Below are positions 1,579 to 4,942 of a stretch of DNA of 6,393 bases, one piece after another. Source of the stretch: a virus (Duplodnaviria; Heunggongvirae; Uroviricota; Caudoviricetes). The DNA is taken from IMG/VR virus record IMGVR_UViG_2576861133_000006. The stretch is one strand, 5' to 3'. Under the pieces are notes generated by a model. The model was given only the letters and a program-made list of their open reading frames with translations, searched no databases and had not been told where the DNA came from. Position 1 is the stretch's first letter. Every line of letters begins with the position of its first letter. The position numbers were made by a program, and so were the translations under genes.

Positions 1579-3450
1579 TTATGATGATGCCGGTGCATTT
1601 ATCTCCAGCACCAGACTTTCTATCTCAACGCCATACGTTGCATTTTTGGTAATATCCGTCAGCGTCAGCGCATTCAGCCCCAGTGTCAGACTGTCTTTTA
1701 TGACCTGGAATGCCGGGCCAGCCACTCCATTCAGTTTCGGAGTAACCGTGGCACTGCCGGCGGTGAACACCAGCTCCAGCGTCTGCCAGTCGTTACTGTA
1801 ATTCCCGAACTCGCCCAACTTTGTGTTTCCTGCTTTCCTGTGATGCATCAGATTCAGTTTGCCGTCTGTGGTCTGGGTGAAGAACGACATCAGGAACGGG
1901 TTACCAGTCCCGGTCATCGCCACGACGTCAGGTAACGCTACATCGGTACACAGATAAATTCCCAGACCGAACTGGTTGTTGGTCAGTGCGCCTGACAGTC
2001 GAAACTTACAGCTCAGTCTGCCACCCCGTGTCAGCAGGGAGACTGCGTCATCCACCGGATGCATCAGGGACCAAGTTTTATTGCTCTGCTTGGTAACCTT
2101 AAACACACCATCTTCCAGCGCAACACTGCCGCCGGTGATGGTCCAGCCCTGCGCAGCAGCCTCTCCGGCTGTCGGCAGCAGGGAGACTGTACGAACGGAT
2201 GTGTCACCATCAGACGGCCCCGATGGAGTGTCGCCGCCGGGCGAGGGTTTGATTTCCGGTGCCTTACCACTAATGAAGGCTAAGGTGCGACCGGCTACGT
2301 TCAGAATAGCAGTTGCCATACGATCGGGAATAATGCCACGACGCGCCCATGAGCTGAAATGCGTCGGGCGATTTGATGATACCCAGTTTTTGTTCGTTCG
2401 GGATGCCGAACCGTAATAACCAGACCCGGCAATATCAGGATCTTCTGACGGGTTGTTTGTCGGTGTATTAACTCCGCTACCATCGGTCATAAAGGGAACA
2501 AAATAAATCTGCTGGGATTCTTTACCTTTATATGCACCATATACCACTTCATATTGCGTACCGTGTTCTTGTTTCCACGCGTATGTCGTGTCGCCACAAA
2601 TCCAGGGGACTGATGCCGGACTTCCACCGTGACACTGCGCCGCCAGCCCGGCAAGGTCAGCACGGAACTGCTGTACCATTGCAAGAAATGCTGCTGGCTG
2701 CTGGGCGTAACTGGCATTCGTCATATCGAATTCCCCCTGCATCCAGCATATCGCCAGCAAAACGTTTTTCGGGTTTTTCTGCAATGCTGCCTTCGTGCGG
2801 AAAAGCAGATCCTGATATAACGGCTTACCCACTCCCCAGCGAGCCGAATCCTGACTGGCCCCCGTGGACTCGCTGAATGTCCCCTCCGTGCCCTGGGTGA
2901 ATGCCGAACCACCACGACAGCATGGTACCAGCAGGATCCCCGCATTATTAGGGATATACGGAAGCAGTTTTTTGGCAATATGTAAGCCCTGTCCGACACA
3001 GCCGTACTGCCCTTTGCTCAGGTCAGCCCGGGGATGGTTAATCGTACTCATATCCTGAACATCATGCAGACAATGGTCAGCAGGAATGATGTCGTTAAAT
3101 ACGCATACTTCACCACCGGGAGTCACTGTGTTACGACGGGCCAGTTGCTTAATGCGCGGATGGGGCGCATCGTATGAATCCGGAAGCGGAAGCCCTTCAC
3201 CGTAAGCCATGGCATTGGATTGCCCGGCCAGTACGATGACGTAGTACCACTCCGGCTCAGTTGCACCACTGACGACCACATCACCTTCTGCTGCAATCGC
3301 CTGCATCAGGGTATAAGGGGTTATGGCCACCGGACTACCAAACGGCTGCCAGCCCTCTTTCAGTTTATGTGTCAGCTTTTCCGCAAGATCTGACGGCGAC
3401 GCCGCCCTGACAACATCATAGTGTTTAAATGCCATGGTTCTTTCCACCAT
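1579..3450 (-). CDS. nanS: Prophage-type sialate O-acetylesterase (NanS-p-like): N-terminal DUF1737-like region, SASA esterase core, C-terminal beta-rich domain
   Basis: 623-aa ORF. N-terminus MAFKHYDVVRAASPSDLAEKLTHKLKEGWQPFGSPVAITPYTLMQ is DUF1737-like. It is followed by VIVLAGQSNAMAYG, a GDSL/SGNH-type GQSN catalytic-serine block typical of sialic-acid-specific acetylesterases. The position upstream of the lysis genes matches NanS-p of EHEC prophages. The start may instead be the ATG at 3435 (MAFKHY...), which has a slightly better upstream purine-rich tract. Confidence 0.75.
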   Translation of the reverse strand: MVERTMAFKHYDVVRAASPSDLAEKLTHKLKEGWQPFGSPVAITPYTLMQAIAAEGDVVVSGATEPEWYYVIVLAGQSNAMAYGEGLPLPDSYDAPHPRIKQLARRNTVTPGGEVCVFNDIIPADHCLHDVQDMSTINHPRADLSKGQYGCVGQGLHIAKKLLPYIPNNAGILLVPCCRGGSAFTQGTEGTFSESTGASQDSARWGVGKPLYQDLLFRTKAALQKNPKNVLLAICWMQGEFDMTNASYAQQPAAFLAMVQQFRADLAGLAAQCHGGSPASVPWICGDTTYAWKQEHGTQYEVVYGAYKGKESQQIYFVPFMTDGSGVNTPTNNPSEDPDIAGSGYYGSASRTNKNWVSSNRPTHFSSWARRGIIPDRMATAILNVAGRTLAFISGKAPEIKPSPGGDTPSGPSDGDTSVRTVSLLPTAGEAAAQGWTITGGSVALEDGVFKVTKQSNKTWSLMHPVDDAVSLLTRGGRLSCKFRLSGALTNNQFGLGIYLCTDVALPDVVAMTGTGNPFLMSFFTQTTDGKLNLMHHRKAGNTKLGEFGNYSNDWQTLELVFTAGSATVTPKLNGVAGPAFQVIKDSLTLGLNALTLTDITKNATYGVEIESLVLEINAPASS

Positions 3451-3628
3451 CTGAAAAATGATTCTTTAAAATACCTGACATGTAATACAGAAAAAACACA
3501 AAACCATACCTTAAATAAAAACCTCATCATCAAGCAGATATGCATGGATAAACTACAAGACGAGATATAAACCACCCTGCATTTAAATAAACAATAAACA
3601 ACATCAGAAAAATAATTCTGCTCTATGG

Positions 3629-3655
3629 TTTACAATCAAAAATATCATTTATACT
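3629..3655 (+). promoter_or_regulatory. Candidate sigma70-type promoter for the 111-aa ORF
   Basis: TTTACA (3629-3634), 15-bp spacer, TATACT (3650-3655), in a very AT-rich tract about 40 nt upstream of the ATG at 3696, which has an AAGGA SD. The spacer is shorter than optimal, so this is weak. Confidence 0.25.
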
Positions 3656-3695
3656 TTTCAGAACATCACCAGCAAGGCATAAACAAGGAAACTAA

Positions 3696-4031
3696 ATGAA
3701 GTGGATTGTGATTGATACAGTTATCCAGCCATCATGCGGAATATCTTTTTCAGTCATATGGAGTAAAATAAAATTAATAATCTGGTATCAATCGGATGCT
3801 TTCTTACCTCCTGAAAGTATATTTACACTGACTCACACAGGCATCATGCTCAATAACAAAGTGCTACCTGTAACCATTTACAACGTAGTACCATTCAATA
3901 AAACATTCTGGAATTTAATCAAAAACAGCCAGGAATGCCCTACAAATACAGATAACGTATTGAATGAATGCTTTAATAACCGTTGCACTCTGCAAATATG
4001 TCCTTATGGACTAAAACAACAAAGTCCATAA
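3696..4031 (+). CDS. Hypothetical protein, 111 aa, AT-rich cargo gene opposite to late transcription
   Basis: ATG with AAGGA SD 6 nt upstream. Very AT-rich coding sequence with six ATA codons. Product [32 protein letters not shown]... has four Cys in the last 31 residues and no recognisable motif. Confidence 0.35.
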
Positions 4032-4049
4032 GGAGTTTACTCACATCTG

Positions 4050-4087
4050 ACAAAATCAATATAAACAGCCCCTCCGGAGAGGGGCTG
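4050..4087 (-). terminator. GC-rich hairpin followed by a U-rich tract on the minus strand (putative intrinsic terminator)
   Basis: 9-bp perfect stem CAGCCCCTC(4066-4074)/GAGGGGCTG(4079-4087) with loop CGGA. The minus-strand transcript continues UUUAUAUUGAUUUUGU; on the plus strand the hairpin is followed by GAGAGUGGCG, with no U-tract. It lies 35 nt past the stop of the 111-aa ORF. Confidence 0.4.
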
Positions 4088-4478
4088 GAGAGTGGCGCTA
4101 TGTGCCATTGCATGGTGCCGGGTGCCTCCCGGTGAATTCAGTACCAGCACCTGAATCCGCGATTATCCCATATACCTACTCGCTGATTGCCCCTCCGCAC
4201 AGGGGGATTCACCATGCCAGTTTCTTTTAACAAACTCCCCGCAAACCAGACAACAATCAACCGCCTGAATTGTGAAGTATTTAAAAATTTCTCCCGCTAA
4301 CTGATACCCGGCTAACAGTCTGGCGTTTTCTTTTTCAGCAACGGGAAAGCAACAACCACCACACCCGCCACCAGCACACCGTCAGCCAGCACTGACATTA
4401 TCCGGCTGCAGCAATGCCATTCACAAAAACAGTAAGCAATCACTTTTTACCGTAACCGGTGATAATCCAGATATGTAT

Positions 4479-4805
4479 CTACCCCAGATGAGTAATCCGA
4501 AGTTCATCCATACCACAGGTCCTGGCTATTCTGTTGTACTCCTGAACAAGAGTAAATAATTCTGAATTAGCCACCATGAACTCATCGCAAACCCTCTGTA
4601 TAGCATCACTATTCAGAATAATAACGTCTCTTCCCGAAAGACGATCAGGAGTACAGAACAAAACTGTCAAACGGCTGAAGGCCTTTGCTCGTGCTGCATT
4701 GACTATATCAATACGCTGCCTAAGGATGAAACACCCCGACGCCTCATCAATATTCACTCTACCCACACCATATGAATGATAAATATTTAATGCTGAAAAA
4801 ACCAT
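4479..4805 (-). CDS. Hypothetical protein, 108 aa from ATG at 4805 (118 aa if the GTG at 4835 is used)
   Basis: Minus-strand ORF in the cargo slot. Product MVFSALNIYHSYGVGRVNIDEASGCFILRQRIDIVNAARAKAFSRLTVLFCTPDRLSGRDVIILNSDAIQRVCDEFMVANSELFTLVQEYNRIARTCGMDELRITHLG. It contains 3 AGA, 3 AGG and 3 ATA codons. No convincing SD before either start and no recognised family. Confidence 0.4.
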   Translation of the reverse strand: MVFSALNIYHSYGVGRVNIDEASGCFILRQRIDIVNAARAKAFSRLTVLFCTPDRLSGRDVIILNSDAIQRVCDEFMVANSELFTLVQEYNRIARTCGMDELRITHLG

Positions 4806-4942
4806 TAGACCGTATAACAAACACTCAATCAACACTTAACAGAACTTTTATTTTTGACAAACATATAATATTTTCAACAATATCCTGAGCCAGGTATATT
4901 TCAGTATAAGGCTCTGCCGGAAGGAATCTGGAAGAATGAATA

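Follow-up and report, generated by a model that had tools for sequence, protein, structure and literature searches.

The interval at positions 4032-4478 of the window, the window being the entire 6,393-nt stretch of viral DNA that was analysed, very probably consists of a complete sRNA gene of the STnc100 family and, upstream of it, a shortened DUF3927 (TciB-like) ORF, both on the late-gene strand of a lambdoid prophage. The original prediction described this interval as 447 bp of ORF-poor, non-coding DNA, with a higher GC content than its flanks, located between convergent genes, and proposed that it acts as an sRNA, a structured RNA or a regulatory region. This proposal is supported by a full-length STnc100 match, which places an sRNA gene in the interval. 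The ORF poverty also stands, as neither strand has an ORF of 60 aa or more that overlaps 4032-4478 (the largest reach 50, 46, 43 and 42 aa), but the interval is not wholly non-coding, since 132 of its 447 bases belong to an annotated DUF3927 coding sequence. The GC fraction is 0.485-0.51 at 4000-4499, compared with 0.30-0.395 at 3400-3999 and 0.335-0.43 at 4500-4899, and the flanking genes, iraM and the phrog_2873 ORF, are convergent as described. The gap between them is no longer unexplained DNA: nearly all of the interval is accounted for, and about one third of it is a small protein-coding gene, probably decayed. The features are listed below.

4246-4057, minus strand: match to the Rfam family STnc100 (RF02076), comprising the sRNA gene and about 29 nt of promoter region.
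4224-4253, minus strand: putative sigma-70 promoter, with the -35 element TTGTCT (4253-4248), an 18-nt spacer and the extended -10 element TGtTAAAAG (4232-4224).
4110-4217, minus strand: conserved structured core, 108 nt, five helices (MFE folds and covariation).
4217-4210 with 4117-4110, minus strand: helix P0 (MFE fold).
4206-4189, minus strand: hairpin P1 (MFE fold).
G4190-C4159 and C4189-G4160, minus strand: base of P2 (MFE fold).
4158-4151 with 4141-4134, minus strand: helix P3 (MFE fold).
4132-4118, minus strand: hairpin P4 (MFE fold).
4187-4181 (AUCAGCG) with 4149-4143 (UGCUGGU), minus strand: pseudoknot, in the P3 loop (permutation test).
4088-4109, minus strand: 22-nt linker AAUGGCACAUAGCGCCACUCUC, mostly single-stranded, between core and terminator.
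4057-4087, minus strand: intrinsic terminator, stem-loop CAGCCCCUCUCCGGAGGGGCUG (4087-4066) followed by UUUAUAUUG (4065-4057).
4254-4311, minus strand: spacer from the DUF3927 stop codon to the sRNA promoter, conserved in JLK-2012 and PhiR12_2.
4312-4443, minus strand: DUF3927 (TciB-like) ORF, 43 codons, GTG start, one predicted transmembrane helix.
4102-4230, plus strand: 42-aa ORF antisense to the sRNA, annotated by PGAP as a partial pseudogene, 'hypothetical protein' (L001 4652-4777).
4835/4805-4479, minus strand: phrog_2873 ORF (PHROG match), flanking the interval.
3696-4031, plus strand: iraM, flanking the interval on the other side.

The assignment to STnc100 is based on the score, the fold and the location of the RNA. 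The RF02076 covariance model reaches 132.4 bits against a gathering score of 47 (E = 7e-30) and is matched over model positions 1-206 of 206, while besides STnc100 no Rfam family, riboswitches included, matches the interval at E <=1. The helices of the family consensus, namely the closing helix, P1 (CCCCCU..GGnGGGG), P3 and P4 (CCGGGAGGCACCCGG), are all present in the MFE fold. The gene lies in the lambdoid late region, on the late-gene strand and between Q and the lysis genes, and it ends in a 3′ Rho-independent terminator with an interrupted U-tract. Because of this membership, the interval holds an sRNA gene whose relatives are expressed and bound by Hfq. Expression and Hfq binding of EcOnc27 were demonstrated by northern blots and Hfq-CRAC (reviewed in PMC7873438), the STnc100-type copy of EDL933 was seen by RNA-seq and northern blotting (PMC5331693), and for PasD northern blots, Hfq-dependent stability and RIL-seq targets were reported (PMC8550237). 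Published STnc_100 qPCR primers, with which the RNA was detected (PMC12370729), match the window exactly at 4195-4214 (reverse complement) and 4124-4143. The family is phage-borne and binds Hfq; expression and Hfq dependence were shown for relatives of the window copy, which would itself bind Hfq. The effects of sRNA103 on fimZ and espA are overexpression phenotypes, for which a direct mechanism was not demonstrated. For the canonical STnc100 type, we know of no target.

The window represents the late region of a lambdoid prophage, in which the sRNA lies about 3 kb downstream of Q and shares the late-gene (minus) strand with the DUF3927 ORF. The order Q, (tRNAs), cargo, STnc100, esterase, holin recurs in VT2-Sakai, an Stx1 phage, PhiR12_2, JLK-2012, E2348/69 PP2 and mEp460, and in other genera Q antiterminators are the nearest upstream neighbours and holins the nearest downstream ones. 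Poor conservation or absence from syntenic prophages would have spoken against a functional element; instead, it is kept despite quite different neighbouring cargo. Of 5426 complete E. coli genomes, 3408 contain the sRNA, and 2141 E. coli records have a copy with an identity of at least 99% to that of the window. A further 662 plasmid places correspond to a 52-nt 5′ fragment only, and the one that was inspected, located between iroB and a decayed integrase gene, has no STnc100 match. An association with tRNA clusters was considered and set aside: only 17 of 132 sites have a tRNA gene within 1.5 kb, which in every case is on the same strand, and this proximity results from phage late operons and is not a defining link. 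The observation behind the original prediction is real but ordinary: it comprises a curated sRNA family and the remnant of a small ORF, each of them frequent in E. coli prophages.

The stable hairpins noted earlier belong to a well-defined minus-strand fold. The RNA from 4217 to 4057 folds to -69.5 kcal/mol (z = -2.96), and none of 200 shuffles was as stable; for the whole interval, z was -2.7 on the minus strand and -2.4 on the plus strand. The MFE fold agrees with the family consensus. Covariation analysis, which had been suggested as a check, revealed strong helix covariation across 51 diverse Enterobacterales copies. Compensatory changes were detected by RNAalifold in 12 of 26 pairs, and the overall pairing reached 90.5%, compared with 77.8% in shuffles and 42-46% in slid controls. 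P0, P1, the base of P2 and P3 are each 94-100% paired, with many double changes, and in P3 both sides have changed in up to 28 of the 51 sequences. The relatives were gathered by a pattern spanning P4 and the 3′ half of P0; these parts are therefore outside the covariation test.

The second level of this structure is the pseudoknot. In fixed alignment columns it is only 52% paired, because its register shifts by 1-2 nt between sequences, and for this reason an alignment-free permutation test was applied. Cognate helices averaged 6.5 bp and -9.3 kcal/mol, versus 5.1 bp and -6.5 kcal/mol for non-cognate ones, and the cognate value was reached in 0 of 2000 permutations. The STnc100 core thus folds more elaborately than the database entry suggests, with a covarying pseudoknot that is missing from the Rfam model.

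The extreme conservation sits in this structured core and not in the putative seed, a pattern opposite to that of typical base-pairing sRNAs and a hint of an additional function. One proposal, rather unlikely in our view, is that the 108-nt core (P0-P4 and the pseudoknot) works as an independent RNA domain with a specific protein or small molecule as its binding partner. If it were true, Enterobacterales would use the core in several ways: as a prophage sRNA when combined with a terminator and an exchangeable seed, as the 5′ leader of kdgM-type porin operons and of small ORFs when no terminator follows, and in tandem arrays on Pantoea megaplasmids; the STnc100, EcOnc27 and PasD sRNAs would then be one use of an unrecognised structured RNA class.

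Another reading, which we consider improbable, is that the core is a riboswitch-like sensor or protein-binding leader acting in cis on the terminator and the esterase and lysis genes, with sRNA activity secondary or absent. Such a role would fit a core that is the conserved part of the RNA (one 21-nt string recurs unchanged in at least 120 stretches, drawn from many genera) and that combines invariant junction nucleotides with a pseudoknot and five helices. The order of elements, with a promoter, the structured core, a short linker and a terminator ahead of same-strand genes, is also that of a riboswitch or attenuator leader. Moreover, at 16 KdgM-type loci the core lies about 200 nt upstream of a KdgM-family porin gene, in an RNA subtype mostly without terminator, and in another subfamily a ribosome-binding site and an ATG directly follow the RNA. 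However, the core has no known ligand or protein partner, the Rfam search returned no riboswitch, and the downstream genes (holins, esterase, porin, small ORFs) are mutually unrelated and share no metabolic logic. In the window itself, iraM on the opposite strand parts the RNA from the esterase gene by about 600 nt. A link through sialic acid, connecting the esterase with a KdgM/NanC-family porin, was also tried and collapsed: the porin of locus L009 is not followed by nanM or nanS, and the porin locus resembles a kdgM and pectate-lyase operon. The gene after the L009 porin codes for a 569-aa secreted protein that, judged from its sequence alone, appears pectate-lyase-like. Finally, and also against a cis-acting leader, relatives accumulate as discrete Hfq-bound RNAs with trans targets.

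A recurring motif had been noted at 4068-4076 and 4189-4197, and GCCCCTCCG indeed occurs exactly twice in the window, at these positions, where shuffles give an expectation of 0.05 and 0 of 200 reach two copies. Both copies lie in 17-nt near-repeats that are themselves hairpins: they form arms of P1 and of the intrinsic terminator, and are merely two similar G+C-rich stems. The repeat prompted the idea of a switch in which P1 and the terminator pair alternatively; this was rejected, as the terminator stems of most relatives are unrelated and the similarity is local.

The terminator stem, which holds the first GCCCCTCCG copy, has nine pairs, of which seven are G-C. Homology with other copies, whose tails read UUUUUUAU or UUUCUUAU, stops directly after it. 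The U-tract (UUUAUAUUG) is broken because the iraM cassette joins right after the terminator stem, and this interruption could weaken both termination and Hfq binding. Across the family, an intrinsic terminator starts 20-45 nt past the core at 42 of 132 sites; for random stretches the figure is 8 of 238.

Such sharp boundaries raise the question of whether conservation acts at the level of DNA, the core being a patch of homology at a module boundary that serves the exchange of lambdoid cargo, with the RNA incidental. Homology between copies breaks exactly at core or terminator edges: VT2-Sakai and mEp460 match the window only to 4109, at the 3′ end of P0, while for the Stx1 phage and PhiR12_2 the match extends as far as the terminator stem. 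JLK-2012 has an STnc100-type core joined to a PasD-type 3′ module, and differing cargo (stx1, stx2, tciAB, iraM) is found on either side of the core. Yet a pure DNA patch would not give the helix-preserving compensatory changes that are abundant here, and it predicts neither a covarying pseudoknot nor a promoter and terminator at set positions. A role as DNA and one as RNA are compatible; this explanation competes with the RNA only as the sole one, and in that form it is very improbable.

The promoter proposed for the sRNA gene is the best -35/-10 match within 70 nt upstream, although a weak one (8/12). A generic promoter scan missed the site because the last -10 base is G, not T. Its -35 TTG and -10 TGnTA are conserved in eight diverged E. 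coli-group copies, and the best promoter match falls at the equivalent position in 30.5% of 118 family members, compared with 10.7% of shuffles. Transcription is predicted to start near G4217, in agreement with PasD2, whose 5′ end was mapped to the initial base of the equivalent GCAUGGUG.

The linker at 4109-4088 probably serves as the seed region, by analogy with PasD, in which both the seed UGUGAG and the RIL-seq chimeras fall in the corresponding 3′ linker and the final ~50 nt. The linker segment is exchanged as a module between copies. Among six tests for linker targets inside the window, none was significant, the best being the methylase start (z = -1.9).

Taken together, these elements suggest how the sRNA would work. 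Host sigma-70 RNA polymerase would, in the lysogen, start at about G4217 from the weak extended -10 promoter (4253-4224), and the transcript would adopt a compact core of five helices, with P0 closing it and the pseudoknot locking it. The intrinsic terminator at 4087-4066 would end transcription, giving an RNA of about 155-160 nt, with Hfq expected to bind at the terminator and the U-rich end. The 22-nt linker (4109-4088) may then pair, as the presumed seed, with host or prophage mRNAs. After induction, Q-modified polymerase coming from the late promoter would probably pass the terminator into the esterase and lysis genes.

The remainder of the interval is mostly the DUF3927 ORF, which is recognised by the PF13064 profile (93.2 bits, cut-off 25, E = 9.6e-27) and by PHROG 1470 ('TciB-like', E = 1.1e-12), and annotated by PGAP as WP_023142244.1. 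A full-length DUF3927 protein has ~52-54 aa and two hydrophobic segments, whereas the window ORF has 43 aa. It is homologous to E2348/69 and JLK-2012 TciB from residue 13 onward only, the first ~23 residues of the homologues (the N-terminal hydrophobic helix) being replaced by 12 unrelated ones, and DNA homology with JLK-2012 stops at 4409. An internal ATG lies at 4398-4396. The CA-rich tract that had been noted at 4350-4380 is present, but it is not regulatory low-complexity sequence: it is the reverse complement of GUGCUGGUGGCGGGUGUGGUGGUUGUUGC, which codes for VLVAGVVVVA in the 43-aa ORF, and hence the antisense of its transmembrane helix. A literature search for DUF3927/TciB returned nothing relevant and no experimental work. 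In the spacer at 4254-4311, no separate feature was identifiable.

In the window, E2348/69 PP2, JLK-2012 and two GTDB loci, the gene directly upstream of the sRNA codes for a small membrane peptide, and this could be taken as a sign of a type I toxin-antitoxin-like pair, with the DUF3927 hydrophobic peptide and the adjacent sRNA as its partners. The two genes are, however, on the same strand, non-overlapping and not antisense; complementarity between the linker and the DUF3927 start region is not significant (z = -0.74); and the ORF is truncated in the window. Of 120 GTDB loci that carry the RNA, just 2 have a DUF3927 homologue nearby, and the Stx phage copies have none. The toxin-antitoxin reading is close to refuted, and we give it almost no credence.

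The chance that the conserved sequence instead codes for a small plus-strand protein, the 42-aa ORF at 4102-4230, is equally negligible, and this ORF was judged spurious. PGAP and several phage records do annotate ORFs antisense to the RNA, but these annotations are pseudogenes, or are frameshifted and vary in length between records. The 42-aa ORF has no match in Pfam, NCBIfam or PHROG, and the substitutions are pairwise compensatory, of the RNA type and not codon-like.

The interest of the locus lies partly in its medical setting, as STnc100-type RNAs adjoin stx genes, and SNPs in them have been reported as predictors of haemolytic uraemic syndrome (PMC12711010). As the ST131 copy shows, the family also occurs beyond EHEC and EPEC. 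The anatomy now worked out includes a start at the closing helix, a covarying pseudoknot, an invariant core, 3′ modules for seed and terminator that can be swapped, and copies outside phages that resemble leaders; it offers concrete mutational targets and a reason to seek the partner of the core. The value to the field is modest but real.

Several known RNAs come from the same part of lambdoid genomes. Lambda 6S RNA and StxS are short pR′ leader RNAs of the Q-to-S region, the terminators of which are overridden by Q-modified polymerase. STnc100 resembles them in lying directly between Q and the next late gene in some phages (in PhiR12_2, the esterase), and at GTDB loci Q-type ORFs are upstream of it and holins downstream. 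In Sakai, StxS/tR′ is far upstream of STnc100, which has its own promoter-like site, and homology with lambda 6S and the pR′ leaders was rejected, as positions 43800-45600 of lambda contain no STnc100 match. IpeX of DLP12, an sRNA of the same Q-to-lysis region, was likewise dismissed: the nmpC-proximal RNA region in MG1655 572000-582000 matches neither the motif nor STnc100. With regard to the neighbouring ORF, JLK-2012 TciB is near-identical to its C-terminal 31 residues (SRIMSVLADGVLVAGVVVVAFPLLKKK...). Unlike TciB, the window ORF begins with 12 unrelated codons and a GTG start without a clear ribosome-binding site, and the partner gene tciA is absent from the locus; the name TciB is an annotation only.

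A further parallel is provided by the AsxR/AgvB anti-sRNA dyads of EHEC prophages. In the account of Tree et al. 2014 given in a review (PMC7873438), these Hfq-binding sRNAs are encoded in the stretch from the late promoter to the lysis genes, and each dyad includes an STnc100-type RNA as one of its two members; the locus is the same as that of the window. The Sakai-type convergent partner AsxR is missing in the window, where the opposite-strand slot past the terminator is occupied instead by a protein gene, iraM. Neither AsxR (RF02703) nor AgvB (RF02702) matches the window at E <=1, while the control search gave 88 bits for AsxR in VT2-Sakai, and a scan found no plus-strand promoter or terminator inside the interval.

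PasD1/PasD2 of EPEC E2348/69 (EcOnc13 homologue) have the same local order of DUF3927, sRNA and SASA esterase. They share with the window copy the 5′ end GCAUGGUGAAUCC, P1 and the retained P0, and for PasD the Hfq dependence and the 3′-linker seed were shown experimentally. PasD lacks the P4 hairpin, reading GGGAGGC-GCCAUGC where the window copy has GGGAGGCACCCGGCACCAUGC, and it differs in the P2/P3 region and in its 3′ module, in which the seed UGUGAG precedes the terminator GGCUGCGCA..UGCGCAGCC. The window RNA was considered as a PasD variant, but its P4 is kept and its linker and terminator differ, which makes it a PasD-related RNA of the canonical STnc100 type.

The nearest known system is STnc100, named EcOnc27 in E. 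coli O157 Sakai and sRNA103 in EDL933. EcOnc27/sRNA103 lies downstream of stx2B in EHEC, whereas the window copy has no stx and is preceded by the DUF3927 remnant and the phrog_2873 ORF. The window copy is about 70% identical to the Stx2-phage copy, from which it differs in the variable P2 arm and the entire 3′ linker and terminator module. EcOnc27/sRNA103 has the same helices, strand and late-operon position as the window copy, and both end in a 3′ intrinsic terminator just upstream of a NanS-p type esterase.

The interval 4032-4478 belongs to a lambdoid prophage, to its late region, where the late genes occupy the minus strand. The original prediction described it as ORF-poor and higher in GC than its flanks, with several stable hairpins, a recurring motif and a CA-rich tract, and as functional, for example as an sRNA, a structured RNA or a regulatory region. 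No ORF of at least 60 aa overlaps the interval, its GC content is about 0.49-0.51 (0.30-0.43 in the flanks), the folding energy of both strands is lower than that of shuffles, and GCCCCTCCG is present twice against 0.05 expected. The finding is real and its interpretation correct: one strong Rfam match, STnc100 (RF02076), covers 4246-4057 on the minus strand over the full model (132.4 bits, E = 7e-30; gathering score 47 bits). This RNA has two hairpins, P1 (4206-4189) and the terminator (4087-4066), whose 3′ arms, when read on the plus strand, account for both GCCCCTCCG copies. The CA-rich tract exists but is not regulatory low complexity; it is the antisense of codons for VLVAGVVVVA in an ORF of the DUF3927 family and therefore coding. 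The sRNA family of the element is curated, already known and very common, and what else the interval contains is the remnant of a small ORF; very probably, it is a functional-looking STnc100-family sRNA gene next to a DUF3927 remnant.

Features of the window, in the direction of late transcription
6294-5245, minus strand: DNA methyltransferase, the first gene
5195-5120, minus strand: tRNA-Ile2 (anticodon CAT; Met by ARAGORN, tRNA-Ile by PGAP)
5019-4943, minus strand: tRNA-Arg (anticodon TCT)
4835/4805-4479, minus strand: phrog_2873 ORF, 118 aa (PHROG, 232 bits)
4443-4312, minus strand: DUF3927 ORF, 43 codons (PF13064, PHROG 1470)
Between the DUF3927 ORF and iraM: region of interest, STnc100 on the minus strand
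4253-4224, minus strand: predicted promoter (-35 TTGTCT 4253-4248, 18-nt spacer, extended -10 TGtTAAAAG 4232-4224)
4087-4066, minus strand: intrinsic terminator
3696-4031, plus strand, opposite to the late genes: iraM (NCBIfam, 162 bits)
3450-1579, minus strand: SASA/NanS-p type esterase, after iraM
Beyond the esterase, minus strand: class II holin, YdfR-family and lysozyme genes

In Stx2 phages an STnc100 copy follows stx2B at a distance of 75 nt, and the qPCR primers published for it (PMC12370729) match the window exactly. This copy is the Hfq-binding sRNA EcOnc27 (Sakai) or sRNA103 (EDL933), which is backed by northern blots and Hfq-CRAC and whose overexpression raises fimZ and espA transcripts (PMC7873438, PMC12711010). 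EDL933 carries 11 transcribed copies, one with a northern blot (PMC5331693). A 2026 preprint ties the family to EPEC PasD1 and PasD2, abundant Hfq-dependent sRNAs with targets mapped by RIL-seq (PMC8550237). Of 5426 complete E. coli genomes, 3408 contain the window's sRNA sequence, each at up to 12 places (median 2). A 52-nt fragment resembling window 4246-4195 (~85%) is found at ~660 E. coli plasmid places; the single one inspected (p94EC-1, L130 1501-1552 in the numbering of the retrieved stretch) has iroB on one side and a decayed integrase gene on the other, no full STnc100 was detected there, and the fragment is a remnant. 'Hypothetical protein' ORFs or pseudogenes are repeatedly annotated antisense to STnc100 (window 4102-4230, plus strand; L128 3198-3439; L124 2517-2840) and look like artefacts of a conserved G+C-rich RNA gene.

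The fold was tested independently of Rfam by searching the 21-nt string CACCGGGAGGCACCCGGCACC (window 4134-4114) in one genome per GTDB species. It was found in at least 120 stretches from Escherichia, Salmonella, Enterobacter, Klebsiella, Kosakonia, Citrobacter, Pantoea, Erwinia, Rahnella and others, and most re-scanned copies score at or above the gathering value of STnc100. Identity between the copies is only ~45-50% once the conserved motifs are set aside, which makes them an ideal set for covariation. From 51 copies, RNAalifold returns P0, P1, a 3-bp P2 base, P3 and P4, with compensatory changes in 12 of 26 pairs. Standard pairs make up 90.5% in these copies, vs 77.8% in column shuffles and 42-46% with slid partners. 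The paired cells amount to 100% for P1, 95.4% for the P2 base, 94.1% for P3 and 99.3% for the closing helix P0, the 3′ strand of which, like P4, carries no covariation information either way because the copies were collected by a string covering it.

Across the copies, the strand directly after P1 is by eye complementary to the P3 loop, with more than 20 different helix sequences (e.g., AGGCUAC/GUAGCCU, GAGCCACAA/UUGUGGCUU and GUGAUACC/GGUAUCAC); in the window, AUCAGCG (4187-4181) pairs with UGCUGGU (4149-4143). Because the register drifts, this pseudoknot is only 52% paired at a single fixed alignment register, and its support therefore comes from an alignment-free permutation test on 95 distinct copies. 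Cognate strands form on average 6.5 bp at -9.3 kcal/mol, vs 5.1 bp and -6.5 kcal/mol for non-cognate ones, and the cognate value was reached in 0 of 2000 permutations. The Rfam consensus is without the pseudoknot, and no description of one in the STnc100 family was found in the literature searched. The interest of the interval lies mainly in this helix and in the deep conservation of the core.

The ~60 nt upstream of P0 are common to eight diverged E. coli-group copies irrespective of the upstream gene, and contain an invariant TTG (-35) and TGnTA (extended -10). From the placement of these elements in the window, transcription would begin with G4217, the base that opens P0. A start at P0 is supported by the best -35/-10 match falling at this position in 30.5% of 118 family members vs 10.7% of shuffles, and by the PasD2 5′ end, the G of the equivalent GCAUGGUG, as set by RNA-seq coverage and the size on the northern blot (Table S6, PMC8550237). 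Many of the 118 members have textbook TTGAC(N17)TAnnnT promoters; the putative promoter of the window copy is weak (8/12 consensus, G at the last -10 position). Strict intrinsic terminators follow the core by 20-45 nt at 42 of 132 sites among the matches listed, vs 8 of 238 random stretches.

In PasD, the seed (UGUGAG) and the RIL-seq chimeras are located in the linker between core and terminator (PMC8550237), and linker and terminator are swapped as a block between copies; on both grounds 4109-4088 (AAUGGCACAUAGCGCCACUCUC) is the probable seed of the window copy. None of the translation start regions within the window is significantly complementary to it. In the proposed mechanism, the sRNA would be started by its own promoter at 4253-4224, which is on balance the favoured source of the transcript, and Hfq-dependent pairing with targets through the linker is likely by analogy. 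Given what is established for lambdoid phages, Q-modified polymerase would read through the sRNA terminator.

It is the folded core that is conserved and not the seed, which does not fit the standard sRNA picture. Among the matches listed, at least 16 loci carry the core ~200 nt upstream of KdgM-family porin genes. These copies (L009, L020, L025, L027, L029, L037, L041, L048, L061 and others; Kosakonia, Klebsiella, Enterobacter, Raoultella, Citrobacter) form a distinct subtype on the porin strand, which looks like a 5′ leader because most of its loci lack an intrinsic terminator after the core. The porin gene of L009 is followed by that of a 569-aa secreted protein, pectate-lyase-like by eye. 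Another subfamily (L011, L012, L017, L047, L065, L071, L072 and relatives) has P1 as GCGGCU..GCnCGC instead of CCCCCU..GGnGGGG and, within 30-40 nt downstream, the ribosome-binding site and ATG of small ORFs rather than a terminator. Tandem arrays also occur (L036 894-2010, L026 3539-4072, L073 3717-5512, L030 3418-3847). Plasmid pAPP145_2 of Pantoea sp. App145 has four RNAs in ~1.1 kb, Citrobacter braakii has three with tRNA genes interleaved, and in Enterobacter two stand back to back. The conservation of the core rather than the seed, and its terminator-less, pre-ORF and tandem copies, leave room for the core to be an independent domain that binds a protein or a ligand, although this is unlikely.

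The predicted product of the DUF3927 ORF scores 93 bits on PF13064 and matches the 'TciB-like' PHROG 1470. Its alignment with JLK-2012 TciB and the protein of E2348/69 shows homology from residue 13 on only, the family's first hydrophobic helix being replaced by 12 unrelated codons; the DNA homology ends at 4409, and the GTG start has no clear Shine-Dalgarno sequence. Since phage mEp460_ev081 has the same 43-codon version, the ORF did not arise simply by decay in the window's lysogen. A homologue lies near the RNA in only 2 of 120 GTDB loci among the matches listed, and DUF3927 is not an obligate partner of STnc100. This low linkage, together with the same-strand arrangement, all but rules out a type I toxin-antitoxin pair.

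Many ST131 chromosomes match 3451-4942 at 100% identity, 863 complete E. coli genomes have 80% or more of this stretch, and in one of the carriers the Q antiterminator lies ~3 kb upstream. The phrog_2873 match begins at residue 11, so this ORF probably begins in truth with the ATG at 4805; in NZ_CP023844 it has no PGAP annotation. The PGAP call for the CAT tRNA would need the lysidine-modified Ile2 type; this is the usual ileZ-like tRNA of Stx-type phages. The prophage-borne iraM, whose product is an anti-adaptor stabilising RpoS, sits in an AT-rich cassette (3480-4037, GC 0.30-0.35) and has a perfect inverted repeat of 12 bp (4001-4012 and 4023-4034) across its stop codon. The esterase-holin spacer (1432-1578) has, at about 1500-1464, a minus-strand terminator hairpin, GCCAUCAGUACUUAACUGGUGGC, with U7 behind it and, by alignment, lacks the ~280-nt insert that bears PasA in E2348/69. 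A perfect 252-bp tandem duplication (687-1189; 2.0 copies, 100% match) gives the YdfR-family gene a 198-aa ORF with an internal repeat (1208-612, minus strand); it is single-copy (114 aa) in the otherwise identical ST131 chromosome NZ_CP023844.

Conservation in syntenic prophages, on which the original prediction also depended, is borne out: the STnc100 element holds its position while the neighbouring cargo varies.

Gene order around STnc100 in related phages
VT2-Sakai: Q, pR'/tR', three tRNAs, stx2AB, STnc100, esterase
Stx1 phage: stx1AB, STnc100, esterase
PhiR12_2: Q, STnc100, esterase
JLK-2012: Q, tRNAs, tciA, tciB (DUF3927), STnc100, esterase, holin
E2348/69 PP2: Q, ORF, DUF3927, PasD2, esterase, (PasA), holin

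In Sakai, the convergent anti-sRNA AsxR begins 2 nt past the STnc100 match, and the two form the 'dyad' of Tree et al., as summarised in PMC7873438. The Rfam search gave no match to AsxR or AgvB in the window, and the slot that they hold in EHEC phages is taken by iraM here. The 3′ module of linker and terminator is shared with the Stx1-phage and PhiR12_2 copies, where homology stops right after the terminator stem (4065/4066), so that the usual U-run is replaced by UUUAUAUUG in the window. In JLK-2012 the core is joined to a PasD-like 3′ module, and in VT2-Sakai and the viable mEp460_ev081 the match reaches only 4109, at the 3′ end of P0, with the breakpoint (4109/4110) at the 3′ edge of the core. 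The conserved core may also serve to anchor the recombination by which cargo is exchanged.
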